Of a stretch of DNA of 64,000 nt, positions 29,501 through 49,700 are shown in pieces (the stretch's first letter is position 1; each line of letters begins with the position of its first letter). The DNA lies in the NCBI GenBank assembly GCA_964187785.1, contig OZ076409.1, positions 34,350,001 through 34,414,000 of the forward strand, in the 5' to 3' direction. The DNA is from Amphiscolops sp. MND2022 (taxonomy: Eukaryota). A program made the position numbers and the translations under genes. A model generated the notes under the pieces. The model was given only the letters and a program-made list of their open reading frames with translations, searched no databases and was not told the DNA's origin.

Positions 29501-32500
29501 TCCGTGCAGGCGAAGGTGAACCGGTGCCACGTAATGGACTGATATCACTTCGACTACGATAAGCTTCGTAACCCTGTAAACCCTTTCGGGCGGGGCTGCT
29601 TTTCCGATCCATAGACGACGTAACCAATTAAAAGTTTAACCAGGTAATTTAAGCTCCGAAACTGATGAGATGTCTTGCACTGGTAAATGCAAGTTTTCAG
29701 CCCAAATCAGCCAATGGTGAAGACAAAACCTCTTTTTATGACTGCTCTTTTTATAATATAAGTTATTGAAAGAGAAACGCAGTACCACACTGTGCAGTAT
29801 GATACAATAGAAGAGGCTCTATATTATTATAAGTCAAATAATATAAAAACTAGTAGAAGCAGTAACTAAGCACTCGTGAAGCCGTATTTTAAACTGCGTT
29901 CAAAATTCAGCTCTAAGCGTTGAATTGCTAGAGCTCGTTAAGAATGAAGCACAGAAACATTTCATTAAACGTTCAAGGGCCAAACTTCAATTTGGACTCA
30001 GTTCGGTGCCAAAAGTTACAATTGTACCATCCACCATTGCTGGTAGATTTTGTTGTTCTTCAGATCGCGCACAAAACTCGTGTTCATTAAACCAACAGCA
30101 GAAAAATCACAAACGATTTTCAACGATGAAATAATTTTTAACTTATATTGTATCAAAACAAAGTACACGTGATACTATACACTATTATTATACCTGAAGT
30201 TAGATTTATAAACTGGATGAATGCACATACTAAAGATGAAAGAATGGTTTTTAAAATGCACTGGTTTTTGAGTGAGCTCAATGTGAGCTTTTTATGCGCT
30301 CAGAGAGTTTGATTCAATGCTGCGATGAATGAACATGATTATTTTAAATGTTGAACTTACTAGATTTTTACACACCAGACGCAAAGTGTCACCCTAGTGA
30401 GACATATAGAGTGAAAAACCATGAAAACAGATTCATTTGGGTTAGAATTTTCGAAAGCCTGAATAAATAAGGCTTTCATATACAGGTAACTGAATTCCTG
30501 TACTAAATACAGTTTTCGATACATTAAAACACTGTACACATGGAGTAAATCTGAATCCTGTCAGAAAACCATTTGGTAGACATGCATATATGTACTTATG
30601 CGATTATACTGACATAAAGGAAAAACCCACAATAATGGCTAAATCCTTACTTCATAAACACAGGAAAAAGAGACTAACGTGATATTTTGCACTTTCGTAT
30701 TTGTCACGTAACTCTTCTAACTCTGTCTTGAGTTTCTCGAAGTGTACCTGAGTTGCAGAGATCTACAAAAGAAAAGAATTTTAGACACACATCTAATTCC
30801 TCTAAGTGTAGAGAGTAGTCAGTGGTGAATTTTCTATTCTAAATAGGATTTTATATAGTACATAGTAAGAAGAAGGGTAAATTTTTCTATTGGAAGACTT
30901 TTCTCATCTTATGAGCTCATCATTTCACATAATCCTCATATAAAACTTCCTATAAAAAATTCCATTCGAGAAAAATAATTTGTTGCATCCTGAATGAGAT
31001 TCTTCACAAGGATCTTTTTCACTGGTCGCCACTGATTATAACCCATTAAAACATACCTGGTGATCTTGCATGAGAATATGCTCCGTAGACCGACCTTCCA
31101 TTTCGTTCAAAGTTCTCAATAGATTGTTTTTCTAAAACAAAAGCTTCTACACAAAAACTGTCCACTATTTTACTGTTAATTTCAAAGTATCATATTATCA
31201 ATTCTTCTGAAAAAACTATACTATCTAGGAAGCCAAAGTGTTTGAAAAGTCATATTTCGGTTTTAGGCTACAATAATCTTTAAATTCAAACTTCAATAGA
31301 AAGACATATCTGAAACAAGTACATACACCTGATAATTCATTATCTAGCCGCACAATTGAGCAATGTACCAATTTGAACTGCATTTGATTCTTCTCGGAAA
31401 TAAGAAAATAGGCCCAGTATTTTTTCTGCGAGGCACAGTATTATTTCTGCTTTCAGGCTCTCACCTTCAATAATATCTTAATCATTTATATAGCGCACAA
31501 TTAATCACTACAAGTTAACACCGCTTTTACTTCTCCTCGGACTAAAGACAATAAAACTACTAAGCGTAGACGAAGTTTCGCATTAGCATTTGAATGCAGG
31601 CGAAGCTCTCGGCGAACGAATAATTAACACTCGTTCGCTTCATTTCAATAACTCGGCGTACGAGAGCATAATTACGAACATTCGCTCACTTCATCTCAAT
31701 GAATCCGGCGTACGAAAGCATAATTACCACTCGCTCGTTCCATCGCACGAGAAAGGAATTGTTGTCGGCAGCTTGAGAATTTAAATCTCACGCTTATATT
31801 CACTGTCCAACAAACAAAATATCTCAATTCTTCAGTAGGCACTCGTAATCACGACACAAAGTGAACTGGAAAAAAAGCTCAATAATTCAGATTTCAATAA
31901 TATTCCTGCTATCGCAGAAATAACAAACCCACAACTACAAAGCTTGCATTCGTATGACGTTTCGTACAGTACCGTGATTAAAAAACCGTCACATGTATGT
32001 GCTGAGGATAACAAGACGGGAACGTCTCATGTCGGCGCTATATCTAAGGCTCAAATAAAATCGAAGAAAGACTCTTTGGAGACAAAAAATTAGACAAAAA
32101 AGTAGCACAGTGCCGAAAAAATCCAAAGGGGGACCCTTTAGGCACGTCAGGTTTTGTATGCTACGTTTAAAAAGTAAAAAACCAAAGGGGGACCCTTTGG
32201 AATAACTTAGATGCGTTTCCCGGGTATTCGTTTAGTTTCCTATAGTTGAACAAACTGAACAAAACGTTAACGTTCGTCGCTTCGAGTCTGTCTTAAAAAA
32301 GAAACAAAACGGGTGACTGTATTAGTCGGGCTCTTTTATTTTAATGGAAGCGTCGACTAAAAATTGGAAAAGAGCAAACAAAGATGAATTTAGCTCAAAA
32401 TCAGCTATTTGTAACTTTCAAAATCTTTTGTCTCTGAAATTTAAAAATATATAAACTAGTTGAAATTCTAAAAAGCTTTTATTTCTTATGTTTTCAAATT

Positions 32501-35500
32501 TTTCGAACGATTACGACCTAAAATCGCCCGGGGGATTATTTGAGAAGCACTGCCTCGCTTCTATGAGTATTTACAAGCCGGGATCGGCCCAAGTCGGCGC
32601 CATGTCTAAGGCTCAAAAATAGCAAAAGGACTTCAAAGGGTCAAAGTATTCTCTTCTACAGTTCCTGAAAAACCCGAAAAGTCGGACCGAATTGGACCGA
32701 AAAGGGGACCTTTTCGCATTTTCAACATCCATTGTTGCAAAACATCAAAACATTGAAGGGGACCCTTTGGGGAAAATCTTTTTCATAAAAAAAGTCTCAC
32801 AAAGCCGAAAAACTGAAAGGGGGGCTTTAGTTTCTCCCGGTATCGTATGTTACGCGGAAATAGAGGAAAACCTTTTTGGTTCAGTTCGCTGGGCCAAATG
32901 ATTCAATTTGGGACCATAAAGTTTGGTAAAACTTTTAAAGAACTATCTTGGCCAGTTCGTGTGGATTGAAAAAAAGAGTCACTATAATAATCGCGTTTCA
33001 CTTCATGAAGCGCTAACTTAAAAAACTAGCTAAAGACTTGGAGTAGCGCTTCCTCACTGCCAATTACAATTGCTGCTTCACTGTATTGATTGGTGACCAG
33101 GTTGGTAAAAGCTCTAGAAAACAAGCCGGGACCGGCCCAGCTCGGCGCCATATCTAAGGCTCAAAAGGACTTCAATATGTCAAAGTATAGGTGAGTTGGG
33201 GACCCTTTTATGAAAAAAAATTTTGGAAAAAAGTCTCACAATGCCGAAAAAAACTGAAAGGGGGGACCCTTTGGTCTCGCCCGGTATGGTATGTTACGCG
33301 GGAAAACAGGAAAAACCTTTTTGGTTCAGTTCGCCAGGCCAAATGGTGCAATTTGGTGCAATAATTTTTTGTAGAACTTTTGTAGAACTATTTTGGTCAG
33401 TTCAGGTGGTCTTAAAAAACACTGACGAAAAGCCATGACTATAGTCGACTCTTGTCTAAAGAAAAGCGCCGACTAAAAATCACATTTACGGCTTCTATAA
33501 CATTTCAGCTCACGCAGAAATATTAATAACACTGAAAGACGAACAATTGTACTTAATTACCTGCATATTAGCAAGCAACATTTTCAACGTAAAATACCTA
33601 TCACTGATATCGAACTCAGAAACTGAAAATAACTCCCTCTTTGCTTGGATATTTGATCACATGCTGGTTAGGAGAGAGAATAACGCCTGAAAGAGAATAA
33701 CGCCCGGGAATAACTTCTAAGTTCAATGTATAATGGCATTGAGGCATGGAATCAACATGACATGGCTTTAGACGTTATTCCCGAGAACGATTTAGACGTT
33801 ATTTTCCTTGTTGGTCCGAGAACCTTCAACAGAAACTAAAAACTATAGATCAATTCCGAAGTAGCATGATGCTAAGTTTTCACAAAAACATAAGTAGAAG
33901 GATCTGGGAACACTAATTGAAGAAACTAAAAACAAATGTTAACTATAACAAATACTTCACCGAAAATAGGAAACCAGACGCAGATAGTGTGCTTCGCTGC
34001 TTAAATCATGAAAGTGAATCAATAAAGCATAAAGTAAAAATCAAAAAAGTTGATAGTATTTGAATTTGGTTCTGTTACCTCAGTTTTCAAATTTTCAATT
34101 TGGGTGTTCAAAAGTTGATTCTTCCTCTCCATCTCCTCTATAGTCTTGTTGGACTCCTTTTCCTGGAAAAAAACTGTTTTGTACTTTTCGTCATTAGGAT
34201 AAAAATAATTTTCACGACATAATGTCCTGAGTTGAATTTCAGTTCTATCACATAGAGCTTACCCGCTTCGAGGCTTCCTGGAGATCGTTTCTCATTCCGC
34301 TCACGACTTTCTCCATGTCTGTGATTTGGTTTTTACTCTCCCTCGTGTCTTGCAGAAGATTTGAATATTCGGTCTGCAACTTTTTGAATGCCTCCTAAAG
34401 CAGGCAGCAGTCAAGAAATTAAGAAGTTGATTGAGCTAGAGTGATTTTTTGAATAAAGATGATCGAAACTGGAACCACGAATTATTAGCAGAATTAAAAA
34501 AGTTTCAACAATAATTTGGACTGGCTAGAAACAGCCACATGGCAAGCATTCAAGAATTGCATGGTTTGATCGGTCATCTTCAAATCTGCAGATTTAATGC
34601 CTTAGGGCCGCCAAAGAAGGTACATTCCTATTGTGATGACAGTGCCCGAGCGGTGAGGCAGCTAACATTATTTTAGTGATTTCTGTATTAGTTTCTTGAA
34701 GAGATTTTGTATCTTGGAATTGAGAGTTCTACTCCTTTCGCTCTTGATAGATTCTAATAAGAGAAGAAGATTGATTAAGAAACGTGAATTTAGTTATAAA
34801 ATCAGATGACATTCTAAGAGCATGAGATAACGTAGTTATGCTTAAGAAGCGTTTCAATCAAGTGACTTCTGTTCTGTCTCATATCTTGAGTGTCTATCGT
34901 TTCTTCTTGTGGCACTTCGATCCCATCGGTCCGCGTCTGTGATTGGCTGTTGCGGCTTGACTTCGAATTTTTGTAGTGTATATTTTCAGGACTATGATAT
35001 CTCATGACCATAGTCATGACACTACCCGCAAAGAAAAGAACATGAGGGCCAGATCACAATGAAGCGGGACCAGCAGAAAAAGGTGAAGAGCCATCATCAG
35101 GAGCGTGAAACAAGAAGAAAAATGAACCAACAGGTGAAAAACTTTGGTGGAGCACACACACAAAACCCAAAAAAAATGTAAAAAGAAAAAGATGAAGGGG
35201 GAACCTCGACTTTGGAAAAAAGGGGATGAAAAGAGCATGAAATTGAGAAAGTGTGAAGAAAAGAAGTTTAAAAGTTCGTGCGGCTATAGAGGCACTAGTG
35301 TATTTGCGAAAGAGAAGTGATTAGTAAAAATACGAATCACTGTAATTGTTGACAGAGCGCAAAAGGCAAAGAACAAATTAACAGCGGATGCTGAAGTGTG
35401 CCAGCGAGGCACAATATTTACTAATGCTCACCAAAAGGCAATTATGCGGTTAGAAAGCCTATTTGGAGTATGACTCAAATGTTCTGTGGGGACGTTTATC

Positions 35501-38500
35501 TCATTAGAATGTATGCTGATACAAGATGAAAACAGGATCAGCAGAAAGAGTATATTGACTGGTTAAATAGATTGGATCATCATTTAAGAGTTGTATATTA
35601 ACAAGAGAAAGAAAAGGGACCTATATGGTCGAAACGGTTCAAGATTATGAATCAAAAGCGATGATGACCAAAGAATGATCAACGAAGTGACAAAGTCACT
35701 CCAGAAGCTTGAAGTGCGGTCTGTGTATGTGTAAAGACACGATACTAAAGAAATGAATAAATATCATGACACGCGCTATCAAGATCCCAAAAGGGAGGAG
35801 AGAACACTTTTATCCGAGAAAGTCATTACATAAAGGAGGGGGAAGCATACATGGAAGAGTTCATGTGCATGTTGGTAACAGTTTCTTCAGGCAAATATAT
35901 ACATTTATCTCGCCAATGATTATCTTTATGAGTGCGGAAATAATCAATTTTCTCAAGCGGGGCGGAAAGCACCGGTTTGAGGGAAACTTTTTCTTTATTT
36001 TCTGTATCAAAGAAAGAAAATGGTTTGAAACGATGTAAACTTTTGCAACGGTGTAGTAGTAACGTCAAAAGAGCATGAAGTATCATTGAGATTAGAAAAC
36101 TGCAAACTCCTATGAGGAGGGTGGTAGTGAATGTTGATGCTTTATTTATTTCACCTAAAAATGGACTTTTCATTTGAACCATTTTTGCAGCAATAGGTTG
36201 AGCGAGAGCAAAAAGTGAGTCATTTGCTCGGGAGGGATTATTGATGTATTTTATATCATGTTTGATGGATTTCAGTAAGTCAATGGCAGCGGAAGTTTTT
36301 GTGTTGTAAAAAGGGAGTTCTGCTACAGATGGCAATGTACTCAATACTGCAGCAGGAGGGTCCGGAAGAAGGACATTCACTGTGACAGCTGGAAGCAGAG
36401 AACAACTGTCCAAATCTGATCGCAAGTGTAGATTGGGGCCAGAGAGTTGTTCACCACAACCCAAAGTGACAATACAAATTTTGCATCCATCCACTGTGGA
36501 AGAGTGAGCGGGTTGCATAGAGGTCATCTGGCTGCGACGTAGTTGAAAGTTGGGAGAGGCAGACACAATGAGCCAGATCCCATAGCGTAGATTGATAGCT
36601 CGTTCGGTAGTGGGCAGTTGGTATGGTTTCACGTTGCATACTTGCATCGCTTGTACAAGATTTCCAAAGATTAATAGTGACAGACATGACGAATATAGGC
36701 CTTCAGTGACAATCCCTTGGCGGCAGATGCTGTAACGGGCAGAGCCTATGCAGTGACCAATGTCACGATGGCTTAACAGGGCCGTTTCACGAGCATCGGC
36801 GGAGACTGCAAGGTATTCGGATTCATTATCCCAAAGGAGAGCTATGTCTTCATCTGGTTGGGGCATTGGGATAGGGATGGCCTGATATATCGTCATAACA
36901 GTTTGTTTGGAAGCTAGTGGAATCGACATGGTCAAAAAGAGGCCCTTTTCCAGGGTGACGACATCTTGGAGGAGTTGGGCATCATAGTATGACATGATGT
37001 CGTTGAATGGAATTGCCAAAGTGAGTCGATCGTCAGAGTTGAATTGAATGTCCCCGACCTTCAGGAGAACTCGTTCCAGAGAATCCCGAGTCAGGAGTGA
37101 CATCGGAACATACTTATTCAGCAACGCAGGGACACTGTTTAACAAGTTCAATCGATAGGCAAAGAGGGCAGCACTGTACGCCTTTATATTCGAATAGAAG
37201 AGTGCGAGCAAGGAGGCAACTGTGTCAAAATTGAAATTGATTTGTTGTCGTGTGAACAACAACTGGTCACAGTTACGCATTTCGTGGATGTCCTGGCGGA
37301 AAGTTTCCAATTGCTCTGAGATGAGGTGCCAATTGGTATTCTGTATCTCGGCCATCTGATTTTGGACATCGTAAATTGATTGGAGCTCGCGACTCACAAT
37401 ATAAAACTTGTCATTCGTGACTGTGCGCAAATGTTCAAAATTTTCGAAGAGCTGAGATTGAGCCGTGAACATGCGGTTGATTGCTTCTTTGTTCTCCCGA
37501 GCCTGGCAATTTCCAAGAATTCCCATGAGGCCACAATCGCCAGATCCCATGGCAACACCTGAGCCAAAGAGGCCTATGGCTCCTAGGGCGATGGGTGCCA
37601 GAGGGAGAGCGCGTTTGGAGCGATTGGAAGAGGGAGATTGGATGGGTGGCGAAAGAAGCGAGGCAACTTCCTTACGAAGATTGATGATCGCTGTTTCTGC
37701 CAAGGAAACTTCCTTTTGAACTTCATTAACGAGCCAATGAACTTGGAAATCCTCCATTGAGACATTCGTGAATTGAAGGTTGCAGAAAAATGTCGGCATC
37801 TTCCACATTGAGTGAAGAGTATTCGTGATGTTACGGAGTTCGTCCTTGATGAATATGTCAAACTGTGGAAAAGGCAAGAGAAATTGGATGTTGATAAACT
37901 TTTCTGCCAAGAGAATCTTTCTATCTTCATGGAAGATTATGCCTTTCTTCAGATCTCCATCAGTACCGTCAAACGGGACGGGTGCAGAGAAAAGGCAATG
38001 CATGGAATGCAGAAGGAGAAAGATAAGAAAGACAATCATTCCGACAGTTTGAATATTTTGTTACAGTGTTGTGAATGTAGATTTGTACTTGATGTATATT
38101 AAATTTTCAAGAGAGCGAGTTTTTTGGCGAATTTCAGCAAAGTGAGAATGAAAAAATGCTTGTGGTGTAAGCAACCGTTGTTGAATTGATCAGCGGGAGT
38201 TATGATTCGAAAGTGAACATTATTCGAGAAGAGTTAATATTTACACCGCACCTTTTCCGGTGGGTATTTGATTCTGCTAGCAAGGGGTGTGCCTGAGTTG
38301 TTTATTTGTGAATTCGAGAAAATACTTCGTGAGGAGTACCTTATATGGGTGTTTTAATCATTTATGGTAGGAATCAATAAAAATGGTATGCGTGAACAAA
38401 ATTTGATACAATTTGAACAAAATTTTCGTGAGAGGTGCTTTTTGAAGGTGTTTATTACTACTTTGCTATTGTTTCAAATTCAGTCAGTCGTTTTGAAAGT

Positions 38501-41500
38501 CAGTGTTTCAAAGTTGAGATCAAGTCCCTTTTGATTATCTACTATCGAGAGTCATCAGTTTTATTCTGCAAGCAGTTCATCAGAGTAATTGAAAAAAGTA
38601 AGTTCCTAGTTAACATGTGTGATCGAGTTTTTCAGACAAACTTTGAAAAAAATGTCTTGCCTTACGGCAAAATTCAAAGAGTTTGTACTCTTGTGTTGCC
38701 CTGAGGGCACATACGTGAGAAGGGGAGGCCGGCTTCTCTCCTTCATCGCCGAATGGCACCCGGACTGCCCCACCAGAAGGAGGAGCCCCGTCAGCGCAGG
38801 GCAGACAGAGGCCCTCACAACTGGATGGGTCCTTGTGGGGTTGTGTGTGGCGGCAATGGCCGCAGTCGGATGGCTTCTGGTGAAGCGCTGGCGAGCCAGG
38901 CGGGCGTGAGCCAGCAGTTTTAGAAGTAGTTTTTAGACAGTAGTAGACTAACTTAGACTTTTGAATTTAGAATTTGTAGCTTTTAGAATTGTAGATATTT
39001 GTATAATTGAAGAGAAAAAAATCAAATGTAGTATGTTCTAGAGCATTTGCAATGCGCAAAAGTATGATTTTCAGTGAGTGAAAGCAGACAGCGTCATGAT
39101 TGAATTGTTTCAGAGCGTGTTTGAGAATGGATCGCTTTTTGAGAGAGGCTGTCATGGCATATTTGAAGGAGGGAAAAATGGATACTGTGGTGTTGACCAC
39201 AGCTGAGAAAAGAGGCAACTTCAAGAAATTTTGTCTGAATATGAAGGTGGGCGTGGACGGGAAGTTGCTGTACAAGGGGCGAAGGCATGACTTTCGACCT
39301 GTGCCTACCCCCGAACAGGTGGACAACGTTTTATACAAGGTCCACGTGAAGGGATACAAAGAGGGAGAGAGCGACTTCAACAAGGAGCATTACCGAGGGG
39401 CACAGAGGCACATCGACGCCTTGTCAAACGCTGGATTTGGCTATCCCTCAGCATTGGGCGGATTGGCTGCACTCGTAAACGAGTGAGTAGTTTTTGATTT
39501 GATACGCAAAAGGAAGAATACTAATTTTGTTCTTAAAAAAATGGGGTCATAGAGATGTGAACATGTAGTGCAATCTATTTCAAATTAGCGGAAAACGATG
39601 TGTTGTAGGTTCCTGAGGAACTGTCAGACCTGCTACTTCAAGAGCAGTGAAGGGATGAAGAAGCAGATGTATCTCTCAGTGCCGTTAGGAAAGCGAGTGG
39701 AGTTATGTCAGCGATTCGGGTACACTTGCATGTGGGAGAGGCAAACAAGAACCACAGGAAGTGTTCCGATAGAGCTCGGAGAACCGAGTCGGAAGGAGCC
39801 AATGGGAGAACTAGCAGAAGTCGGCGGAGAGTGCTTTTTCTCCAGCGTCTACTATCTCCTATGCGGAAGAAAATCAGGTCAGTATCAACAAATACGGAAA
39901 AAAAACCTGTGTAGGGCTCTTGACATAACTAGAGATGAAATAGAAAAAAAACGAAAATTCATAAATTTTGCGTCAGAGCGGAAGCACACTAATGCCAGCA
40001 GAAATTGCAAGGCTATCCGGGTTGCAGCGACACAGGCAATGCAAACGGATACTTTCAAGGAGTTTTGTCGAGCCAGTCTGGGGACAGCTCCGAATGACTT
40101 CTTAGCAAAAGAATGTGCTAAGGTCACAGCAAGCATTTCCGAAGCGGCAGTTAGTGGTTCGACCGTATTCTTCATGGATATGGTAGGTCTTCAAAAGGGG
40201 CTGATTTGAGGTGTTTTTGCAGATTCTAGCCACTGCTTGGGTGCTCGGATTGGATCTCATGGTCTACTGGCAATATTGGGACAAAGGAGGGTGGATCCGA
40301 TATCGACATGGGCCCAACAGTAGCGCACGGGGCAGAAGCCTATTATGTCAGGCAATACAGGGCGGGGAACGATTTCGAATCCGGTTCCATTGCGAACCAT
40401 TGCCAGATTTCCCTGAGCCAGAGTAAGTACGATATACAAGATATATCAGAGAATCCAAAGCGAGAAATGAAAGAAATATGAGCAATAATGGAATAATTTC
40501 GTGTTTTGTACAGACTAATAACTTCAGTGCGTGTCCGGGGGCTTCCTGAGCAAGCCTTCCAAGAGGAGGAAGAACATGGAGCCTGTGGGACAAGCGCCAG
40601 TCCATAAAATGGGTGAGAAAATAACTTTATTTTTCGTAAAACACTCGAAAATATAAGATTTCGGCCATATTTGGGCTTATTTTGCGAGCATAAGAAGCCA
40701 AAAGGCGTTCAAAATAAAGCAAAATGAAGGTCTATGGATGTACAGACCCGTACGCGTGGAAGCAGAAGCAAAAAATACAGTAAGAACTAAAAAAAATGAA
40801 GAAAAAATTGAAATTTTCCAATATCCAGGAGGTGAGCCTCCGGGGTATGTCAGAAAAACTTTTTTAAATATTTTTTTGCTTCGATTTTCAATTTTTTGTG
40901 CTAAATCGATAGGAAACCGAAAAATAATCGGCTGCTTGGAGTTTTCCGGGGTGAAAAAGTCATAGTTTCAATTTTTGGGCATGTTAGAGGGTCCATTAGG
41001 GAGGGTCAAAATTTCGATCCAAATTTAGGGCAAAATTTCACAAAGAAAGAAATGGTTGCGGTAAGATCTGAGGCCTGGAGTGGAAGCTCCAAAGTCTACA
41101 GATTGTAACGGTACTAGGTCCGTAGCGGTACGATCGGTAGTCATAGAGAAAATGACATTTTAAGGCAAATTTTCACCATTTGCAGGGTCTGTTTGGTACA
41201 TGGGCCGAGAAATTTCGGTGTAAAGCGGGGATTTTGAGTACTCTAAAGTGCAGTGGAAGGTAAGGTGAGGTGAACTCAAGGATGTAAAAGCGAAATACAT
41301 CGTTCGTGGCAAAAAAATATAATAAAAATGAAAAAAAAGTGTAAAAATCTGTCAAATCGATAGTTTATATCCATGAAAGGCAAAGTCTATTTCTAACGAT
41401 TTGGGTTGAAAAAAGACCTTTTGGTAGGGTTTTGGCGTAAGCGCTGGGGTCTACCAGTGCTAGATTGAACGGAAGTGACGGTCGTAGTCACAGAGGCAGA

Positions 41501-44500
41501 GGGGTTTGATGTAGTAGGATAATTTAAGTGACGTACGGCTGCTAACGATTGACGTAGCGTATTGTAGTCAATAACGTCAGGATGACGCATAGGGCTTAAA
41601 GGCGATACAGGGCGGGGCAAGCGACTAGGCTGTGCACGAGGGGTCGTTATAGGGGTACTCGAACGAGGAGGTTGAAATGGGGTATTTATCTGAGATGGGC
41701 GAGGTATCAAAGATGGGGAACACAAAAGGTGTTGTCCCAGAGAAGATGAAAAGTGTAAAGGGTTTTGCGCAGAGGGCATGGAAAGGGGTTGAGAACCCGT
41801 AGAGGAGCCAGAATGGCTCATGCGTAGACGAGCATTATTGATTTCAGTTTCAGAAAAGCCTGAAAAGGTAGAGGAGTCAGAAAAAGATGGGTACAATGAG
41901 GTCGGTGCAGCAGCTAAAGATGGCTGCGCTTGTTGGGTAAAAGTAAGAGTGGTGGTCGACGGTACAAAAGGGACGTCCAAAACTTGCTCATAGTGATCAG
42001 AGTCACTAGAATGGTCAGAAGAAATATCCGTATAATATTGCAGGGGAGGTGGAAAAGCGAAGTGTTAGGACGCTCCATTTGCAAAGGGGGTCTCGGCTGT
42101 AAACGGGGCAGAGGGGGTAATTCTCTATGCTGAGGTCTAAGGGGGGCCGGAGCCACGGGCGGCGGTGCTTGTGGCGGTGCTGGTACTGGAGCTAGTGCTC
42201 GACGAGGAACGTAATAAAAAAGCACATTTGGAGTTTCACTAGGGTCACTTTCGTAATGGAAAGTTTTGTCAGAAAGAAGATCTGGGAGAGCTTCATCAAA
42301 AAGTGCCGGCTCTGAGACTGTTCTAGTAAAATCAGAATGTTCCGGAGTAAAATCAGCTGGATTTATGTGTGGCAAGTCATCCACAGTGTACTGAGGCTGG
42401 ATTGGACGAAGGCGAATCCGGTGAAAACATTGTGTGTTATGTGTTCCAACTTTACGGATAATGTAATTTGAATTTGTAAGAACAATTTCAACTCGATAAA
42501 GGGGGAGCCATTTCGTCAGTGATTTGCCCATATGGTCATTCACATTCGTTAGTTTAGGATTGAGCAAAAGACAATAACTGTGTTTTTTCAGCGGCGCTGC
42601 GGATGCTTTTCGGTCATAGAAATGACGGTATTTGTTATAAGCAGTTATCGTCGCATCGCGAGCAGCGGAAAAAAACTTCATTCATTTTATCTTGCACAGT
42701 GCTGGTAAAGTCATATTGAGTTTCTAACGTCTGTAAGAGCATATTGTTAAAACGTAAGTCCAACGGAGTGATTGGTTGGCGACCATGAAATAGGAAAGTA
42801 GGTGTACATCCTATCGTAGCATGGTAAGACGTGTTGTGGACAAACACTGCTAGATCTACATACGCATGCCAATCACGTTTAATGTGATTTTCATAAATTC
42901 CCAAGTACTGTTTAAGAGACGCATGGGTGCGCTCAATAGAACCCACTGTTTGAGGGTGTTTAACAGTAGCATAGTTTAAGTTAATCTCCAAAAGTTTGCA
43001 TAATTCTTGCATGATTTTTGCCGTAAACGCAGTTCCCATATCCGAGAGGATAATTTTAGGGAGATACGTCGTTCGCATGAAAATTTGAAACAATTGTTTC
43101 GCGATGTTGGGTGCACTAGCGTTTCGAAGAGGAATGGCAAAGAGATATTTGGTAAAAGTGTCTTTGGCTGTTAAAATGTGCGTAAAACCACCTGAGTCCG
43201 GTAGGCGACCGACTAAGTCAATTTGCAACATATCTCCAGGGAGAGATTTATCCGTAGCTAAGGACAACAAAGGAGGTTTTTGAGTGGCGTGCTTTACAGG
43301 TTTTACTTGTAGGCAAGACGAACAATTTTTGACATAGGCAGTTAGGGCTTCGACAAAGTTCGGAAAGTAAAAATATTGTCGAAAAAGTGTGGCTGTTTTA
43401 GTTATGCCTGAGTGGCCTGCGAATTTGCTATTATGAACCCGGTATAGAACTTCTTTACGTAAATGTTTGGGTACGACATATTGTCGGGTGATATTTCGGC
43501 CTGTGTGGTCAAAAAATTTCCGATAAAGGAGACCTTGGTGTAGCTCTAAACGATCAAAATGTTTCAAGTATTTAGCTAATTCTTGATTCATATATGGTGA
43601 AGGCGAAGGCGTTCCCTTTTCAAACCACGTCAAAACAGTTTGAATGTTAGGGTCTTGCAATTGTTCTTTTTGTAAATCCAGGGGATTCTTTTTGTCAGCT
43701 AGGTCAAAGGTATCTAAGGGGTTTGGTGCATGCAGAGCATTAAGAGTTGGAAGTGTGCCAGAAATGTCTTTATTAGTACACAAAATCGAGTACTCGAAAC
43801 GAAGAGAATTAAGCGTGTTATCAGGGACTTGCATTCCCATATTTAGGTGCACGTCAGCTACTGGAAGTTTCGAGTTGAACCGTAGTTCCAATTTCGTGTG
43901 CGGTTGTAAGTGAATTCGAGACAAATAATCTGCGGCGGCGTTCGCTTTTCCCGGTATGTGTCCTAAAACAAAGTTAAAGTTTAGGACATGATCAACGCAT
44001 GTCCAGAGACTGGAGGGAATAGTTTTCGCTTGGAAGAATCTCGTAAGACTCTTATTGTCAGTTAAAACTAAGACTGGTTTGGAGGAGCCCCAAAGAATGT
44101 GGGCAAAAGTGTCGAACGCAAAATGAACCGCTAGAAATTCTTTGGCATAAATAGAGAGTTTGAGATAAGTGGGCGTAAAAATTTTTGATCCAAAGGAAAC
44201 GGGTACATAGGTTTTAAATGTACTACCACTTTGGTCAGTAATGTAGTCCTCAATCATCAATACGTAACCTGCTGCGTAAAAGCTTGCGTCAGTGAGGATA
44301 ACGTATTGTGCGTCTGGTTTCGGTAGACGGAGTGACATCGTGCATGCTTGTTCTAAGTCTTTTCGTAACACTTCGATACTTTGGTGGTGTTCATCCGTTA
44401 ATATCATATCGTTCTCTTGACGAAGTAAGCGATAGAACGGAAGGAGTTCTTCCCCTAGTTTTGGAATAAAAGAGCGAAAATATTGGAAAAATCCAATAAA

Positions 44501-46689
44501 TCGTCTAATTTGTTTTGCTGTTTTAGGAACTTTCAGGGTAGACAGGAATTCCGATACTTTGGCTCTATTCGGAGACATTCCTTCACTTGTAATAGTGCTA
44601 CCTAGGAAAGTCATTTCTTTCAATCCAAATTCGCATTTTGATGGTGTAAATTTGAGACCTGTTTTTTCGACACAAAGGAAGATAGCTTCGAGGTGGCTTA
44701 GAAATTCATCAAACGTTCGTGCAGCTGTTCCTAAATCGTCCACGTATTGAAAGCACTGATCTGCTACAATACACGGGTACAGGTACTTTCTCATAAAGGA
44801 ACTGAAAGCGCTCACAGAACGGCTAAGTCCTTGTGCGAGACGAAGGTAGGCGAACGTGCGAGAAAGAAAATTAAACGACAGCAATTGTACCGAAAGTGGA
44901 TATGCCATTTGTAAGACATGATACGCCTGACTGCAATCTAACTTGGCAAAATATTTATTCCCAGCGAGATGTGCATTAACATCTGCTAATGTAGCAATGG
45001 GGAAGTTGTGATTGTCATAATCATGTCTGATTAAATGGTTGATCCGTCTCAAATCTACCAAAATTCGTAACTTACCAGAGGGCTTGCGGACAGCGAAAAT
45101 AGGCCTGGAGTATTTTGAATACGTTAGTGTGGTGATGATACCCCAGTATTGAAGCAAAGCGAGTTCGACTAAGACTTCGTCACGGTAGTGAATCGGTGTT
45201 GGAGGCCCTTGTGTGTACATCGGTTTATCATTTTCCGGAGTGAGTTTAACTTTAAACTCCTCATTTGCACCGATATCTAAGCGGTGGCGGGCAAAGATGT
45301 AGTGAAACCGAAGTAACAACTGTTCGACTTTTGTTTTTTGTTCAGTAGTGAAAATGGAATTCTGCCATGGAAATTGTTCTAAAAATTGCTTACGATGTTC
45401 GTCGTTTGTAATCGGATCAAGGTTCTCTTTTGCTCGTAGTGCAACGATTTCATCATTGATTCGTTTGTTGATTCCAGTTAATAGTTCAGGGTGCAAACAA
45501 ATTTCCGGAGTAGGGAACCAGAGTCCATCCGATGAGGGATAAACTTTGGTGCCTGTATCCGCAATCAAAGTATTGACGCTTTTGGAAAAATGTTCCGAAA
45601 GAAGAGCAGGACTTACGGGTTGCAAGTACTGCGCCTGTTTGGCTGTTAAAATGGTAACTTTGGCGATTGACGCGTTTTTTGAAACAGTAACTTTGTGTGG
45701 GAGAATATTTAAAATTCCTAAAGAGACTTGTTTCTTTTCGTTGAATTTCACTATTGCGCTTGTGACGCAAAGTCCGGTTTCTTTTTCAAACCTAGGATTA
45801 GGTTCAACTATCGCGACTGTTCCTTCAGGGAAGGCTTCCGTCGAAAGGGTGCAAGTTAAAATTTCCGAAGAGTTAGGGTTTACAGTCAATGACTGAGTTG
45901 AGTGGAGAAAAAGGTTCTTTTTCTGTGTTAGTGAACTAACTTTTCCGTCTTTGTGGATACGTTCGGTTAGTTGAATGGTTAAGTTAGGCAATTTCAACGT
46001 TCTGGTTTTAGGGTGTATTACTATATCGTGTTTTTCAAAGAACGGTAGACCTAAAATTGTCTGATTCATTGATTTCATCAAGATAAAGGTTTCAGTAAAA
46101 GGCTCATTAGCAATTTTAAAGTGGGCTTTAAAAGTTCCAAAAGTGGTTACTGAAGCTCCATTAGCGACTTTAACAGTGCTTGTTTCTGGATTATAATTAG
46201 TTATAGATGACGGGCAATTTTTTTGGAGTTTTTCAAAAATGTTTAGTGGCATAGCACTTGAAAATGCTCCTGTGTCAATAAGAGCTTTCACAGGGAAAGA
46301 AAAATGAATTGGAACTGAAAAAAGGGAGGTGCGAGGTTTAGTGGAGAGGACATTTATGGAGTTAGAAAAGGAAGAAGATATAGAAGAATTAGGAGATAAA
46401 GGGTTACGGGTTAAGTGTGGCTCACCTAGTTTTTTTGGTTCTGATTGTTTTGTGTGGCACCATATGGGTTCGACCACGGAGATACCATTGTATAGGGTTG
46501 CCAAACTTGTTGTTGGGGCTGTTGCATCATCGGCGGCTGCATATTTTGGTATTGGAATGCTTGAGTTGTCATTTGGTTATAAGGGAGAGCTGCAGGTCCT
46601 CCCGGTGGGTTGCGAAACCAACACTTGGACGGAGGGTGTCCAAAGCGATTACAAATGTTGCAATGTATACGGCCAGAGCGTGCGTATTG

Positions 46690-46720
<31 letters not shown>

Positions 46721-49700
46721 CTGGGCTGATTGTTTTGGTTTCTATTTTTCCAGTTCTGGTTCCGGTTTTGCCAGTTTTGATTTTTGTTCTGGTTATTTTT
46801 CTGGTTGTTAGGGCGCTGCTGGTTGTTATTATTATTATTACCGCGCTGATTGAAGTTGCGGTTGTTTTGCTGTTGATTTTGATTATTAAGTACAGGAGTA
46901 AGACTTTCTATCATTTGCTTCATTTCCGTAGAGAGCTTACTTGTTTCCTGTTTCAGCGTATCCTGGGCCTTGGACAACTCGTGGATGCCAGCAAGTAGGT
47001 CCTTAGTGGAGAAACTACTTCTCGTTGAAGGCACTATCGTCGTCTTCGGGATAAAGACGATCAACTATCATCCTACTCGCGGCTTTCGAGCAAAGATCCT
47101 CTACTGTGGTTTCATCGGGCTGTGTGAGAAGAAATCGCTTGATTTTCGTGGGCATTCCTTTTATGAAAGCCTCTTTGATTCTTCGATTTCTCTCCTGGGC
47201 GCGATCTTCAGCAACTACAGCGGGTCGTCCGCCAGCAGCAGCACGAGCTGCGACATCTGGGTATGCTTCAATTGCGAGTCGTTGCAGGTCCGTCAAGAAG
47301 TCCTGTGCACTTTCGTCTGATGTCTTCATCTTCCTAGCTTGGAAGAGCAGTTTTTGGAGTTGAACACGCTGATAATTAAGATAGCGTTCACGAAGAGCTG
47401 GAATGGCGACATCGTAGTCGTTCCGTGTTGCGTCTGGCTGTTGGTCAAAGAATGACAATGCTCCTCCTTTCAAATGGAGGTGTAGATATCTATGGCGATC
47501 TGCATTTGCTATTCCTGCGACATGCATACAACTCTCGAGTTGTCTAATAAATTCTTCCAAATTTTCTTTTTCGGTGCCTTTGAAAGGCTGTAAATTAACA
47601 AAGGGCTGAATAGCGCCATAGTGAGAAACTACAGCAGGCAATTGTGAGTGTTATAGGAGGTTATTGTTCAAATTATTTCAAGCAGCATTGAGTGTTTTCA
47701 AGTATGTGAAGAGTAGTGTGAAGAGTTTTTACAATATCAGCATTATCGCGAGTTTCAAGTGAAGTGGTCGTTGCGAGGATTAAATCGATTGAGTTTTTCT
47801 ATCGTGTTCTTTTTAATTGAAACGATTTACTGCGTTGAAGGTTGAACGAGGAAAGGAGATGACTCCTGTCACCATGTGATGACAGTGCCCGAGCGGTGAG
47901 GCAGCTAACATTATTTTAGTGATTTCTGTATTAGTTTCTTGAAGAGATTTTGTATCTTGGAATTGAGAGTTCTACTCCTTTCGCTCTTGATAGATTCTAA
48001 TAAGAGAAGAAGATTGATTATGAAACGTGAATTTAGTTATAAAATCAGATGACATTCTAAGAGCATGAGATAACGTAGTTATGCTTAAGAAGCGTTTCAA
48101 TCAAGTGACTTCTGTTCTGTCTCATATCTTGAGTGTCTATCGTTTCTTCTTGTGGCACTTCGATCCCATTGGTCCGCGTCTGTGATTGGCTGTTGCGGCT
48201 TGACTTCGAATTTTTGTAGTGTATATTTTCAGGACTATGATATCTCATGACCATAGTCATGACACCTATTTTCGAGTAAACCAGGTTCCTTTCATAACAA
48301 TCTTTGATTCAGACCAAATTCATTGTGTAATGGAATGCCATGGGGAGCTGAATCAAAAACATTTAGATTTTACAAATATCGATTCTCGGGTATAATTAAT
48401 TCTCGGGTACGAAGCTTAATAGCAATCTCAGGGCATCTCTTACATAGTATATCACGTTTGTCGGGGAAAAACAAACAGACCAAAATGCCGGAGAACTAAT
48501 CATGAAAAAGTATGAATACTGTGATAGGGAAACGTACTTGCTGGTACTCAGCTTCGGAGTTGAATGCGTATTTGGACCTGGCCTGCGAGGACTGACACTC
48601 GGAGAGGCTCTTTCTCAGCTGTTCGTTCTCCGTCCTGAGTTTGTTCATGTCTGGCAGCAGTCTGCCCAACTCCCTTTCTAACCTGCCACTCTTATCTTCG
48701 TACTTCGAAGCCTAATAAAGAGTTTTAGATTTTGAATTTTCATCATTTTACTGGTTCAAGTTTCCCACATTTTTGGAATGCCTAATTTTCCAAACTAAAG
48801 ACTTTCTTTGAAGCGGAAATTATTTCAAAGGAGTTTTAAAAATGTCAAATTTCATCAAAATGCCAATATATTTTTTTTGCGCAGGAAGTCGAAAAGAAGC
48901 TATTTTGTTCATAAAAATTGTTCCTCAATTCATCACCATGAATTTGATGAAATCAGCTGTATGAGACGAAAAACGAAAAAAACTGCCAAAATCTCTGAGC
49001 CAAATGAAAACTATTCTGAAAATTTAAAAGCCAACTATCTTCAATTTTTGTAATGGTGTTGTCTTCATTTTTGTAAAACGCGGTCTTCGTCAAGCCTTCA
49101 GACACTCTAAGTAGAAGTTCACATACCTTTTCCTGTGATTTATGTAATGAAGTTTTGCACGATTCCAAAGATTTCGTGAGCTCTTTGGTTTTGTCCCCGA
49201 TGTTGTCGAGCTGAAACGAACTCATTTCAAATTTCGAATTGAAATAGAATGGAGACTAGCAATAGTGATTTATAAGTATACTAACTTCCTGAGCTCTATC
49301 AGAGGCTGCTATTTTCAGTTTGTGAATCACTCGCTCTTGTTCATCCAGCTGAAAGGAGGGCAAGAAATAACCATAAATGAAACGCCGGTTGAATTTTTCA
49401 TTTTAACCAGTTTTCAGATGTATTATACGTTTTGCTGTACGCAAAAGTTCAGATACGAACAAATTAATAATTAGAAGATATTAACAATAACAAGAAATTG
49501 AAGATCTTACTTCGGCCATTGCCGCATCTCTATGTTCTTGCAAGGATAGAACCTCCCTCCTCAGCTTCTGAATTGTGTCGTCTCGCCGAGCAAGCTAGAA
49601 AAAGCAACAGAAAACATTCACGTCATATGATCAACCCAGGGCTAACCTTAATCTCTAAATCAAACTTTCTATTGAATAAAAAAAGGTTGAACCTCTAATT

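Follow-up and report, generated by a model that had tools for sequence, protein, structure and literature searches.

The window analysed here is a 64,000-nt stretch of the Amphiscolops sp. MND2022 genome (assembly GCA_964187785.1, contig OZ076409.1, 34,350,001-34,414,000), and all positions below are based on it. A full-length LTR retroelement with gag, pol and env genes occupies 34632-48265 on the minus strand, and inside it, on the plus strand, lies an intron-bearing gene for a protein with a predicted zinc finger and a predicted OTU domain.

The host is an env-bearing Ty3/Gypsy element

The features of the element are as follows:

5' LTR, 47875..48265, minus strand: 391-bp direct repeat, 99.5% identical to 34632-35022
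3' LTR, 34632..35022, minus strand: 391 bp
Target-site duplication, upstream copy, 48265..48269, no strand: ATAG(G), read from the flanks
Target-site duplication, downstream copy, 34627..34631, no strand: read from the flanks
Primer-binding-site-like sequence (TGGTGACAGG..., TGG...), 47857..47874, minus strand: adjoins the 5' LTR
gag, piece 1, 47015..47650, minus strand: weak DUF1759 match (E 1.2e-4), short of the Pfam cut-off
gag, piece 2, 46426..47064, minus strand: frame-shifted relative to piece 1
pol, 42635..46576, minus strand: aspartic protease, RT, RNase H, integrase H2C2 and rve core
pol C-terminal continuation, 41393..42681, minus strand: split into frames 41914-42681 and 41393-42064
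env, 35826..38039 (ORF 35826-38060), minus strand: F-type class I fusion glycoprotein, in head-to-head orientation to the OTU gene

This is a recently inserted, errantivirus-like Ty3/Gypsy element that carries env. The LTRs have TG..CA ends and differ from each other at 2 positions over 391 bp, and the target-site duplication is 4 or 5 bp long, according to whether the LTR is taken to start at G or at TG. The domains of pol follow the order PR-RT-RNaseH-H2C2-rve, with Pfam matches to RVT_1 (7.7e-18), Integrase_H2C2 (5.3e-16), RT_RNaseH (1.7e-14) and rve (5.3e-12). The env protein has a signal peptide, an RSKR motif (aa 147-150) ahead of a hydrophobic stretch, a C-terminal TM segment, 6 NxS/T sites and 16 Cys. 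In Foldseek comparisons, its AF2 model (pLDDT 73.9) matched paramyxovirus F proteins (best 6.5e-7, with 116 matches at E<=0.001) as well as baculovirus F and chuvirus glycoproteins (1.5e-20 to 1e-15). The pol domains and the env matches thus agree with the first-pass annotation, which had described an env-bearing Gypsy element with frameshifts in gag and pol. Indeed, neither gag nor the C-terminal part of pol stays in one frame in the window copy, while a sister element has gag as one 432-aa ORF and pol as one 1340-aa ORF, in which the stretch of pol that is broken in the window is in frame.

An intron-bearing antisense gene lies between pol and env

The plus-strand gene consists of the following features:

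(Y)n tract and AG, 39100..39113, plus strand: 13 nt before the ATG; probably the 3' splice site of an intron in the untranslated leader
Exon 1, 39127..39482, plus strand: aa 1-118 and 2 nt; N-terminal region with both His of the HHCC zinc finger
Intron 1, 39483..39608, plus strand: 126 nt, GTGAGT..TGTAG
Exon 2, 39609..39877, plus strand: zinc-finger CxxC, linker, OTU Cys loop and helix (GGECFFSSVYYLLCG)
Intron 2, 39878..39976, plus strand: 99 nt; in frame and stop-free in the window copy
Exon 3, 39977..40149, plus strand: helical middle of the OTU domain
Intron 3, 40150..40222, plus strand: 73 nt
Exon 4, 40223..40422, plus strand: OTU helix and beta-sheet; contains FHCEPL with the candidate catalytic His
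Intron 4, 40423..40513, plus strand: 91 nt
Exon 5, 40514..40607, plus strand: acidic C-terminal tail and stop codon
AATAAA, candidate polyadenylation signal, 40713..40718, plus strand: 106 nt past the stop; pattern match only

We rebuilt the spliced frame in silico and obtained exons and phases identical to those first proposed, in which four canonical introns were said to join the fragments into one 363-aa frame. The five exons sum to 1092 nt (363 codons and a stop), the introns are all GT..AG with compatible phases, and the motifs GGECFFSSVYYLLCG, KAIR, ILATAWVLGLDLMVY and FHCEPL are all found in the spliced frame. Because intron 2 is in frame and open in the window copy, the ORF track displays a read-through at 39589-40209. 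Upstream of the ATG, (Y)nAG is present at a distance of 5-16 nt in all 15 loci displayed, in flanking sequence that is unalignable across lineages, and this AG is probably the 3' splice site of a leader intron. We looked for a junction-spanning spliced product among 140 database matches and found none: the apparent spans are intron read-throughs, with the exception of P0077, which is a genomic ORF from another assembly that lacks intron 2 and hence gives no transcript support.

The antisense gene is a conserved and selected part of the element family

Elements of this kind form a large, diverse clade in this genome, and the gene has long been a part of them under selection. The order LTR-gag-pol-[antisense gene]-env-LTR was found in all three diverged full sister elements examined, and an antisense ORF between pol and the 3' LTR is conserved in most copies of the family. 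Similarly, among 32 additional 4.3-kb loci, 18 have the N-terminus of env head-to-head upstream of the OTU gene, at protein identities as low as approximately 25%. A search for TIRs bounding the cassette found none; the only inverted repeats were 14-25 nt long with 78-93% complementarity, and none of these was sensibly placed. The same placement in sister elements, together with the absence of bounding TIRs, rules out a one-off nested insertion and bears out the earlier proposal that the cassette is integral to the element family.

The antisense introns were likewise upheld by comparison among copies. At positions predicted from the window model, GT was present at 113 of 116 donors and AG at 149 of 156 acceptors over 52 loci. 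Between lineages, the exons retain 65-73% nucleotide identity, but the introns only 52-63%, on a par with the 48-60% of shuffled-intron controls; the introns are thus no more alike than shuffled sequence would be. Every exon match is stop-free in 41 of the 52 loci, as are 132 of 150 exon-4 matches counted from the match table. The first-pass annotation had suggested that dN/dS across copies be checked for a value below 1, and we found a value of about 0.1 (0.08-0.15 in the seven best unsaturated pairs), which is indicative of purifying selection. Between lineages, synonymous sites are saturated and pN is 0.18-0.36.

These results dispose of the idea that the frame is a chance assembly of open fragments and no gene at all, to which we give virtually no credence: it has in its favour the lack of any Pfam match, but it is refuted by the conserved splice sites, by dN/dS and by the divergence of introns relative to exons, and is also opposed by the homology and predicted fold described below.

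The C-terminal region is predicted to adopt an OTU fold

The relationship of the protein to OTU proteases is too distant for direct model searches. The Pfam OTU and H2C2 models gave no match, even at E<=10, to the exons, the intron-2 read-through or the read-throughs of sister copies, and none of the 24 matches of the Pfam OTU HMM across the whole genome falls at copies of the antisense gene. A profile of alignment A2 searched against PDB sequences gave a lone chance match (E 8.2), a search for longer-protein homologues with exons 2-3 found none, and a query of the ESM Atlas with the stop-free exon 3-4 read-through returned no usable match. A 138-row alignment (A4) rich in database fragments was discarded, as it ran to 965 columns and many of its rows had 0% identity.

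Profile-profile comparisons detected the relationship. The alignment of the spliced family matched 14 OTU ORFs of this genome, picked with the Pfam HMM, at 95.3% (hhalign P 2.2e-8, score 59.1), while one reversed and 20 column-shuffled controls all remained at or below 14.1. A search of 1.84 billion proteins with the family profile found 140, and 12 of the 23 that were tested pass the Pfam OTU cut-off; these 12 verified OTU proteins had been retrieved at E 1.2e-6 to 7e-4. Comparison of alignment A2 with the 12 proteins by hhalign gave 98.5% and E 2e-15. In the alignments to OTU proteins, the Cys pairs with the Cys of GDGNC and the His with the His of HF..V.

The C-terminal ~170 aa are predicted to adopt the OTU cysteine-protease fold. 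The AF2 model was built not on the spliced protein of the window but on sister copy L012, with introns read through and X at stops. It has a pTM of 0.74, and pLDDT falls below 50 mainly at 93-124 and 170-198, which are read-through intron segments, and also at 1-6 and 72-75. The input alignment held 7 bona fide OTU proteins, and hence fold and sequence do not count as independent lines of evidence. In a Foldseek search of the PDB nearly all the rows listed were OTU proteins, but at E >=0.03, with no match at E<=0.001. With VIA-align, in which we treat Z differences <1 as ties, OTUD3 reached Z 9.2 (rmsd 3.5, 123/141 aligned) and OTUD1 Z 9.1. Among the 48,161 PDB representatives, OTU or OTU-like proteases filled all of the first 31 rows (Z 9.0 to 4.0). 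Two further bacterial OTUs and a MINDY deubiquitinase came next at Z 3.0, and the first non-deubiquitinase appeared at Z 2.8. OTUD3 and the OTU of the nairovirus Taggert tied at Z 9.0 in this comparison, and other nairovirus OTUs scored Z 8.0-8.5, in alignments spanning model residues 1..272. Thus, of the checks by HMMER, HHpred, AlphaFold and Foldseek that had been proposed for the OTU assignment, the Pfam HMM failed and Foldseek stayed at E >=0.03, but homology (from hhalign and the profile search) and predicted fold (from AF2 and VIA-align) both back the OTU relationship.

The N-terminal region resembles the integrase zinc finger of Ginger1-type transposases

The N-terminal ~130 aa, overlooked in the first-pass annotation, form by profile alignment an integrase-type HHCC zinc-finger module. 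The H, H, C and C are kept in 23, 23, 22 and 21 of 23 distinct sequences, and hhalign matched this region to the N-termini of 13 proteins with Pfam H2C2, rve and OTU domains (96.8%, E 2.1e-10; residues 1-120 on 1-118), with all twenty shuffled controls at or below 18.2. Proteins of this H2C2+rve+OTU type, approximately 610-670 aa long and with a gastropod and a sponge among their sources, are the closest Pfam-recognisable relatives of the antisense gene product. This composition is that of the Ginger1 transposases, which combine a Gypsy-like integrase bearing an H2C2 zinc finger with a C-terminal OTU or Ulp1 domain in an intron-bearing gene, as described by Bao, Kapitonov and Jurka (2010, PMC2836005).

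As judged by alignment, the protein is collinear from residue 1 with both ends of these integrase-OTU transposases. The two segments matched by hhalign cover template positions 1-216 and 489-632; they pass over ~350 aa and leave no counterpart of the DDE core, and no Pfam rve match was found in the exons or read-throughs of the antisense gene. At equal alignment depth, the N- and C-terminal ends score 38.7-62.4 against Ginger1-type transposases, while the match of the N-terminus to the element's own integrase is weak (25%, P 7.5e-4 with P0104; score 23.3, P 0.0045 without P0104). The shared features are thus an H2C2-type N-terminal finger and a C-terminal OTU domain in one protein from an intron-bearing gene. 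However, the antisense gene lacks the DDE/rve core, the GPY/F region, TIRs and a target-site duplication of its own, and it sits antisense in an LTR retroelement rather than forming its own cut-and-paste element. Its OTU domain, too diverged for Pfam, also stands apart: in a tree of OTU domains the antisense-gene family forms one clade (100/98 support) on a branch of 2.15 changes per site. Because of the long branches the sister group is not resolved in this tree, and we therefore claim no direction of transfer.

Candidate catalytic residues are conserved

Over the 52 loci, the candidate catalytic Cys is kept in 51, the His in 50 and the Glu at His+2 in 51. The observation that the usual Asp at Cys-3 is replaced by Gly extends beyond the window copy: Gly occupies this position in 45 of the 52 loci and Asp in none, whereas Asp is invariant in the 12 Pfam-verified relatives. 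The residue preceding the Cys is Glu or Lys, not the OTU-typical Asn. Activity is therefore not assured, but the product may well be an active deubiquitinase or ubiquitin-like-protein protease.

Comparison with other systems

Ty3/gypsy elements with env, the errantiviruses, are reported to occur in many metazoan phyla, and the main text of that survey nowhere mentions OTU, antisense, deubiquitin or accessory (eLife 2026, PMC13524379). The element in the window shares with errantiviruses the LTRs, gag, pol (PR-RT-RH-IN) and an F-type envelope gene, but its antisense fourth gene falls outside their described architecture.

The viral OTUs of the nairovirus L-protein and tymovirus PRO have the fold that is predicted for the antisense gene product and are likewise encoded by a replicating parasite. 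In VIA-align comparisons, Taggert scored Z 9.0 (rmsd 3.4, 136 aligned), CCHFV Z 8.3-8.5 and the TYMV proteinase Z 5.4. These, however, are domains of RNA-virus polyproteins. The OTU described here would instead come from a gene of its own, spliced and antisense, in a reverse-transcribing element, and it differs in having a zinc-finger N-terminus and Gly in place of Asp at Cys-3. Antisense genes are known from retroviral proviruses, among them the spliced HBZ of HTLV-1, which encodes a bZIP regulator and not an enzyme. The conserved acceptor just before the ATG in the elements studied here would similarly suit a leader exon farther upstream, but the protein has a predicted OTU fold.

Among plant LTR retrotransposons, Grande, RIRE2 and Retand are described as having a conserved additional antisense ORF between pol and the 3' LTR, which is suspected to be regulatory and shows no clear likeness to known proteins (PMC7264820). 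Thus, these elements too have a conserved extra antisense gene at this place, but the gene in the window differs in its identifiable HHCC and OTU regions, its four coding introns and its animal, env-bearing host; we liken them by placement, not by sequence. OTU domains are also reported in animal Helitrons and Helentrons (PMC2836005), which are likewise transposable elements with an OTU protease, although they belong to another element class and their OTU is fused to the Rep/helicase protein.

A proposed role at the integration machinery

The antisense HHCC-OTU gene is a selected part of this clade of elements, and we consider it probable, with moderate confidence, that it encodes an enzyme that acts with the integrase machinery. 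Being antisense to the genomic RNA, the introns could not be removed from it by splicing and would thus survive retrotransposition. Transcription would start at a promoter upstream of the conserved leader acceptor, either internal or antisense in the 3' LTR. The integrase-like N-terminal domain of the product might dock it onto the integrase or the preintegration complex of the element, which would rebuild, in two polypeptides, the integrase and OTU arrangement that Ginger1 has in a single protein. Removal of ubiquitin at this site could shield element proteins from degradation, or could tune host repair or defence signalling at integration. In a bolder form of this proposal, which we hold tentatively and with some doubt, a whole clade of env-bearing Gypsy elements would have split a Ginger1-type integrase plus OTU into the normal integrase of pol and a spliced antisense gene whose HHCC/active-OTU product joins the intasome in trans, with HBZ-like expression through an antisense promoter and a leader intron.

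The protein might instead be a regulator and not an enzyme, an integrase-N-terminal decoy that joins multimers and damps or times integration, and thereby controls copy number, with its OTU region serving as a ubiquitin-binding or scaffold module. Such a role would fit the retention of an integrase-type HHCC module in the absence of the DDE core, the Gly that has replaced the canonical Asp at Cys-3, and the regulatory roles suggested for the plant antisense ORFs (PMC7264820). Nonetheless, the near-complete retention of Cys, His and Glu was observed across lineages that are only ~25% identical, and is therefore hard to explain without catalysis; we regard a purely regulatory role as unlikely.

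We give rather little weight to an immune-evasion enzyme, a counter-defence role of the kind put forward in the first-pass annotation. On this reading, a viral-type OTU would remove ubiquitin or an ISG15-like modifier from signalling proteins of the host, and the N-terminal domain would have nothing to do with docking to integrase. The high scores of the nairovirus OTUs (Z 8.0-9.0), in alignments over the whole of model residues 1..272, speak for this reading, as does the host element, which carries env and is therefore potentially infectious. However, the cellular proteins OTUD3 and OTUD1 match the viral OTU scores (Z 9.0-9.2), and the nearest relatives in sequence are OTUs borne by transposases, not by viruses. 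The collinearity with Ginger1-type transposases is no less suggestive of a function in the integration machinery than of immune evasion.

It is very improbable that the gene is a passenger that does nothing for the element and is left over from the insertion of a Ginger1-type transposon or host gene into an ancestral element. One would expect of such a remnant that both ends be homologous to Ginger1-type transposases and score better against these than against the element's own integrase, as they do. With neither a DDE core nor TIRs, though, the gene cannot move alone; furthermore, its low dN/dS and the intact introns, start and catalytic residues persist beyond synonymous saturation, and selection must therefore have acted through the propagation of the element itself.

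To our knowledge, OTU and Ulp1 proteases borne by transposons have been known since 2010 without a demonstrated function, and extra antisense ORFs of LTR retrotransposons have been known for longer still without a recognisable domain. The gene in the window unites these two puzzles in an antisense accessory gene that has identifiable domains, clear candidate catalytic residues and strong purifying selection, in a young env-bearing element, and we found no earlier description of an antisense HHCC-OTU accessory gene in such elements. Both the value of ubiquitin removal to mobile elements of the integration type and the purpose of antisense ORFs thus become testable at the bench, and the gene offers a concrete intermediate for the evolutionary connection that has been proposed between the integrases of Gypsy elements and Ginger1 transposons. 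If integrase and OTU have indeed been split between pol and the antisense gene, this would be the first case in a retrovirus-like element of an antisense accessory gene that codes for an enzyme, and a living link between Gypsy and Ginger1, whichever the direction of transfer. The antisense placement itself may allow a retroelement to keep an intron-rich gene indefinitely.

Gene model and host element

The four introns and single 363-aa frame that the first-pass annotation proposed for this locus are as it described them in coordinates, phases and GT..AG boundaries, and translation of the joined exons gives 363 uninterrupted residues followed by a stop codon. The annotation had also reported frameshifts in the surrounding gag and pol genes, and the window copy is indeed broken across frames in gag and C-terminal pol.

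Features of the antisense gene and its host element
39127-39482, 39609-39877, 39977-40149, 40223-40422 and 40514-40607, plus strand: exons of the antisense gene (total 1092 nt)
34632-35022 and 47875-48265, minus strand: LTRs of the host element (391 bp, 2 differences, TG..CA ends)
35826-38060, minus strand: env ORF (env 35826-38039), 744 codons
42635-46576, minus strand: pol, with protease, RT, RNase H, integrase H2C2 and rve in Gypsy order

The introns of the antisense gene (126, 99, 73 and 91 nt) all begin with GT and end with AG, with a pyrimidine-rich tract before the AG. Intron 2 is open and in frame in the window copy, which accounts for the 206-aa ORF at 39589-40209 in the ORF list; in P0077, a genomic ORF from another assembly, a relative of the gene, the equivalents of exons 2 and 3 follow each other without a break; that lineage lacks intron 2. 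An AATAAA lies 106 nt past the stop codon. At the other end of the gene, a pyrimidine tract and an AG are found 5-16 nt upstream of the ATG in 15 of the 15 loci displayed (window 39100-39126, L009, L012, L013, L028, L029, L033, L036, L037, L041, L042, L046, L053, L056 and L057), even though the flanks cannot be aligned from one lineage to the next. The gene may thus have a fifth intron, in the leader, with a promoter farther upstream, towards env or the 3' LTR. The promoter may even be antisense in the 3' LTR, as is that of HBZ in HTLV-1.

The host element is complete, with an ATAG(G) target-site duplication and a TGG... primer-binding site. Its env ORF encodes a protein with a signal peptide and, at the C-terminus, a membrane anchor; it contains 16 Cys and 6 NxS/T sites, and a hydrophobic segment comes after its RSKR site. 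A profile of env and 34 homologues gave only weak matches (E 0.045-1), which were to the fusion-peptide end of influenza HA2. The AlphaFold model of env (pLDDT 73.9) matched paramyxovirus and pneumovirus F proteins in the PDB (116 chains at E≤0.001, best 6.5e-7), and among predicted viral structures the closest were chuvirus-like glycoproteins, an abalone herpesvirus protein and baculovirus F (E 1.5e-20 to 1e-15). From these matches to the modelled env, together with the anatomy of pol and the LTRs, the host is a Ty3/Gypsy element that bears an env of the ‘glycoprotein F’ kind; a recent survey places such elements across metazoan phyla (PMC13524379).

Relative to a sister element, which has single ORFs for gag (432 aa) and pol (1340 aa) and LTRs that are identical over the 343 bp aligned, the window copy has extra frame breaks at 41393-42681 (C-terminal pol) and 46426-47650 (gag). 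The antisense gene is intact despite the broken gag and pol, and the LTRs differ at only 2 of 391 positions. Interspersed or tandem-like repeat families of 90-190 bp with GGGGGACCCTTT motifs lie on both sides of the element, at 32116-33381 and 50387-54291.

Conservation of the antisense gene among element copies

When the 1.07-Gb genome that contains the window was searched at the DNA level, 9 copies of 94-100% identity were recovered, together with dozens more at 64-84% that match the antisense gene exon by exon. A protein search with exon 4 yielded 269 candidates, 150 of which were scored, with identities from 100% down to 38%; by our count from the match table, 132 of the 150 are stop-free. 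The order LTR-gag-pol-[antisense gene]-env-LTR was present in all three diverged copies for which 20 kb was inspected. Among 32 further 4.3-kb slices, drawn from ever more distant lineages, 18 have the env N-terminus head-to-head with the gene, on its upstream side; the other 14 are perhaps too short or too diverged to show env. Terminal inverted repeats bounding the cassette were looked for and none were found. A one-off nested insertion with its own inverted repeats, which would have refuted the first-pass annotation, is thus rejected: the cassette is kept in sister elements.

Splice sites and coding sequence are both conserved. Across 52 loci, at the positions predicted from the window model, 113 of 116 donors have GT and 149 of 156 acceptors have AG. 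Nucleotide identity between lineages is 65-73% in exons and 52-63% in introns, the latter no better than shuffled introns (48-60%). In comparisons with the window copy, pN is 0.18-0.36 and synonymous differences are saturated (pS 0.82-0.89). For seven pairs of well-diverged copies that are not saturated (dS 0.11-1.8), dN/dS is 0.08-0.15; pairs with visibly decayed copies give 0.2-0.74. By these comparisons the antisense gene is real, under long-term purifying selection, and travels with the element.

Two near-identical gene copies, L002 and L003 (G000:C8:46825762-46832616), lie in tandem 2376 bp apart, start to start, either through local duplication of the cassette or in a rearranged element.

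The C-terminal half is a highly diverged OTU domain

Pfam recognized no domain in any exon or read-through of the antisense gene, and the family profile had no match among PDB sequences; the protein inputs were exon references, natural read-throughs (with X at intron stops) and spliced alignments. Comparison of profiles did identify the domain. With hhalign, the spliced family alignment matched 14 OTU ORFs, chosen from the same genome by the Pfam OTU model without reference to the family, at 95.3% probability (P 2.2e-8, score 59.1), while one reversed and 20 column-shuffled controls scored 9-14. The alignment places the family GG-E-C over the G-D-G-N-C of OTUs and FHCEP over the OTU His. An exhaustive HMMER search with the family profile against 1.84 billion representatives gave 140 matches, most of them genomic ORFs of exon size that belong to the family itself; a Pfam scan of 23 put 12 above the OTU cut-off and one just below it, and showed no domain in the other 10. 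The family matched these 12 proteins at 98.5% (E 2e-15), and the spliced alignment did so at 99.3% (E 3e-20), with both Cys and His among the 171 columns covered (10 shuffles ≤18.3). The 14-ORF comparison is the cleaner test, because the 12 were selected by their likeness to the family profile.

The predicted fold points the same way. An AlphaFold model was made for L012, a sister copy with exons 2-4 in one frame including intron read-throughs, from a 56-row alignment that included 7 OTU proteins. The model has a pTM of 0.74 and core pLDDT of 85-94; confidence is low mainly across the two intron read-throughs (93-124 and 170-198), and 1-6 and 72-75 are also below 50. In the fold check by AlphaFold and Foldseek that the annotation had suggested, nearly all structures listed by Foldseek were OTUs, but with E values of 0.03 or worse. 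VIA-align scored OTUD3 at Z 9.2 (rmsd 3.5, 123/141 aligned) and OTUD1 at Z 9.1, and, among viral OTUs, those of Taggert virus at Z 9.0 and CCHFV at Z 8.5. In a scan of 48,161 PDB representatives without Foldseek preselection, the top 31 rows (Z 9.0 to 4.0) were all OTU or OTU-like proteases, followed at Z 3.0 by two further bacterial OTUs and a MINDY deubiquitinase; the first non-deubiquitinase chain came at Z 2.8.

The candidate catalytic residues are retained at nearly all of the 52 loci (Cys in 51, His in 50, Glu at His+2 in 51). The residue at Cys-3 is Gly in 45 and Asp in none, as the annotation had noted for the window copy, while Asp is invariant in the 12 relatives. Considered together, homology, modelled fold and catalytic residues identify the putative OTU-like domain of the annotation as a highly diverged OTU in which nucleophile and base are kept and the Cys loop is altered.

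The N-terminal half and the relation to Ginger1

By eye, exon 1 and the start of exon 2 resemble the region of Gypsy integrases up to and including the HHCC zinc finger, a feature that is new beyond the first-pass annotation. The zinc-finger residues H, H, C and C are kept in 23, 23, 22 and 21 of 23 distinct N-termini. One database match, P0104 from the gastropod Nucella lapillus, has Pfam Integrase_H2C2 and OTU in one protein, and its relatives are H2C2 + rve + OTU proteins of ~610-670 aa from Nucella lapillus and the sponge Oopsacas minuta, among others. According to Bao et al. (PMC2836005), this is the architecture of Ginger1 transposases, whose genes bear introns and are also found in Hydra, Aplysia and an aphid.

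The family N-terminal alignment matched the first 135 columns of 13 H2C2 + rve + OTU proteins at 96.8% (E 2.1e-10), collinearly from 1-120 to 1-118 (20 shuffles ≤18.2). Two segments of the full-length spliced alignment matched these proteins, 1-242 against their 1-216 and 129-290 against their 489-632, and the integrase core between them is skipped. At equal depth (4 sequences), comparison of the N-terminus with Ginger1-like proteins gave scores of 38.7-62.4 and with the element's own integrase a score of 23.3, though the latter profile is weakened by the lesser diversity of its four pol sequences. Thus, the antisense-gene protein matches both ends of Ginger1, and both genes bear introns, but the protein has no DDE core and the cassette no terminal inverted repeats. 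In a tree of OTU domains the family forms a single clade (100/98) on a long branch without a supported sister group; a retroelement may have taken up a Ginger1-type gene, or transfer may have run in the opposite direction.

A possible role in integration

A gene with no mobility of its own (no DDE core, no inverted repeats) that is under selection must owe that selection to propagation of the element, and its protein should therefore help the element. Its introns would persist because the genomic RNA copied by reverse transcriptase carries them in antisense. The N-terminal domain of integrase mediates integrase multimerization in retroviruses, which suggests that the integrase-type domain here may dock the protein to the element's integrase or to DNA ends. 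We think it probable, with some reserve, that the gene encodes a putative deubiquitinase, or ubiquitin-like protease, that would be carried to the integration complex, the two genes together forming a counterpart of the single Ginger1 polypeptide.

The conserved Cys, His and Glu argue for catalysis; a non-catalytic integrase decoy or regulator, which would fit the zinc finger and the altered Cys loop, is rather unlikely. An antagonist of host immune signalling, the role that the annotation proposed, has viral OTUs among the structural matches on its side and, against it, closest sequence relatives that are transposase-borne and not viral, and we consider it quite doubtful. That the gene is a passenger, present in the element and yet under purifying selection, is highly improbable, and a chance ORF with conserved splice sites can be dismissed.

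Parts of this arrangement have precedents. OTU domains in transposons are described for Ginger1 and Helitrons (PMC2836005), and env-bearing Gypsy elements are known across metazoans (PMC13524379). Some plant elements have an additional ORF in antisense, located between pol and the 3' LTR; these ORFs too lie within an LTR element downstream of pol, but a review describes them as having no clear similarity to known proteins (PMC7264820), whereas the domains of the antisense gene (HHCC, OTU) are identifiable. In a search of the main texts of openly available papers, we found no paper joining a transposon OTU, an antisense ORF and an env-bearing Gypsy element; the terms OTU, antisense, deubiquitin and accessory do not occur in the main text of the metazoan errantivirus survey (PMC13524379), nor do OTU and ubiquitin in a rotifer paper on captured ORFs.

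Other OTU and integrase sequences

An OTU subtype with a shared leader motif ahead of the domain is fused to different transposases, with a DDE_1 (pogo-like) C-terminus in the database protein P0135 and with integrase in P0087, P0104 and P0143, which suggests a mobile OTU module. Canonical OTUs are found elsewhere in the genome inside open frames of 2244-2816 aa (C13:25891363, C2:103635724, C2:103743429, C1:3609704 and others) and in a multi-copy family of ~180-aa ORFs (L059-L062, L064); these are presumably transposon-borne and are positionally unrelated to the antisense gene. A whole-genome search with the integrase H2C2 HMM gave 27,378 first-look candidates, and many of the 150 scored belong to a single family whose 1610-aa ORF is intact, a sign that this genome has a very active load of Gypsy or Ginger elements.
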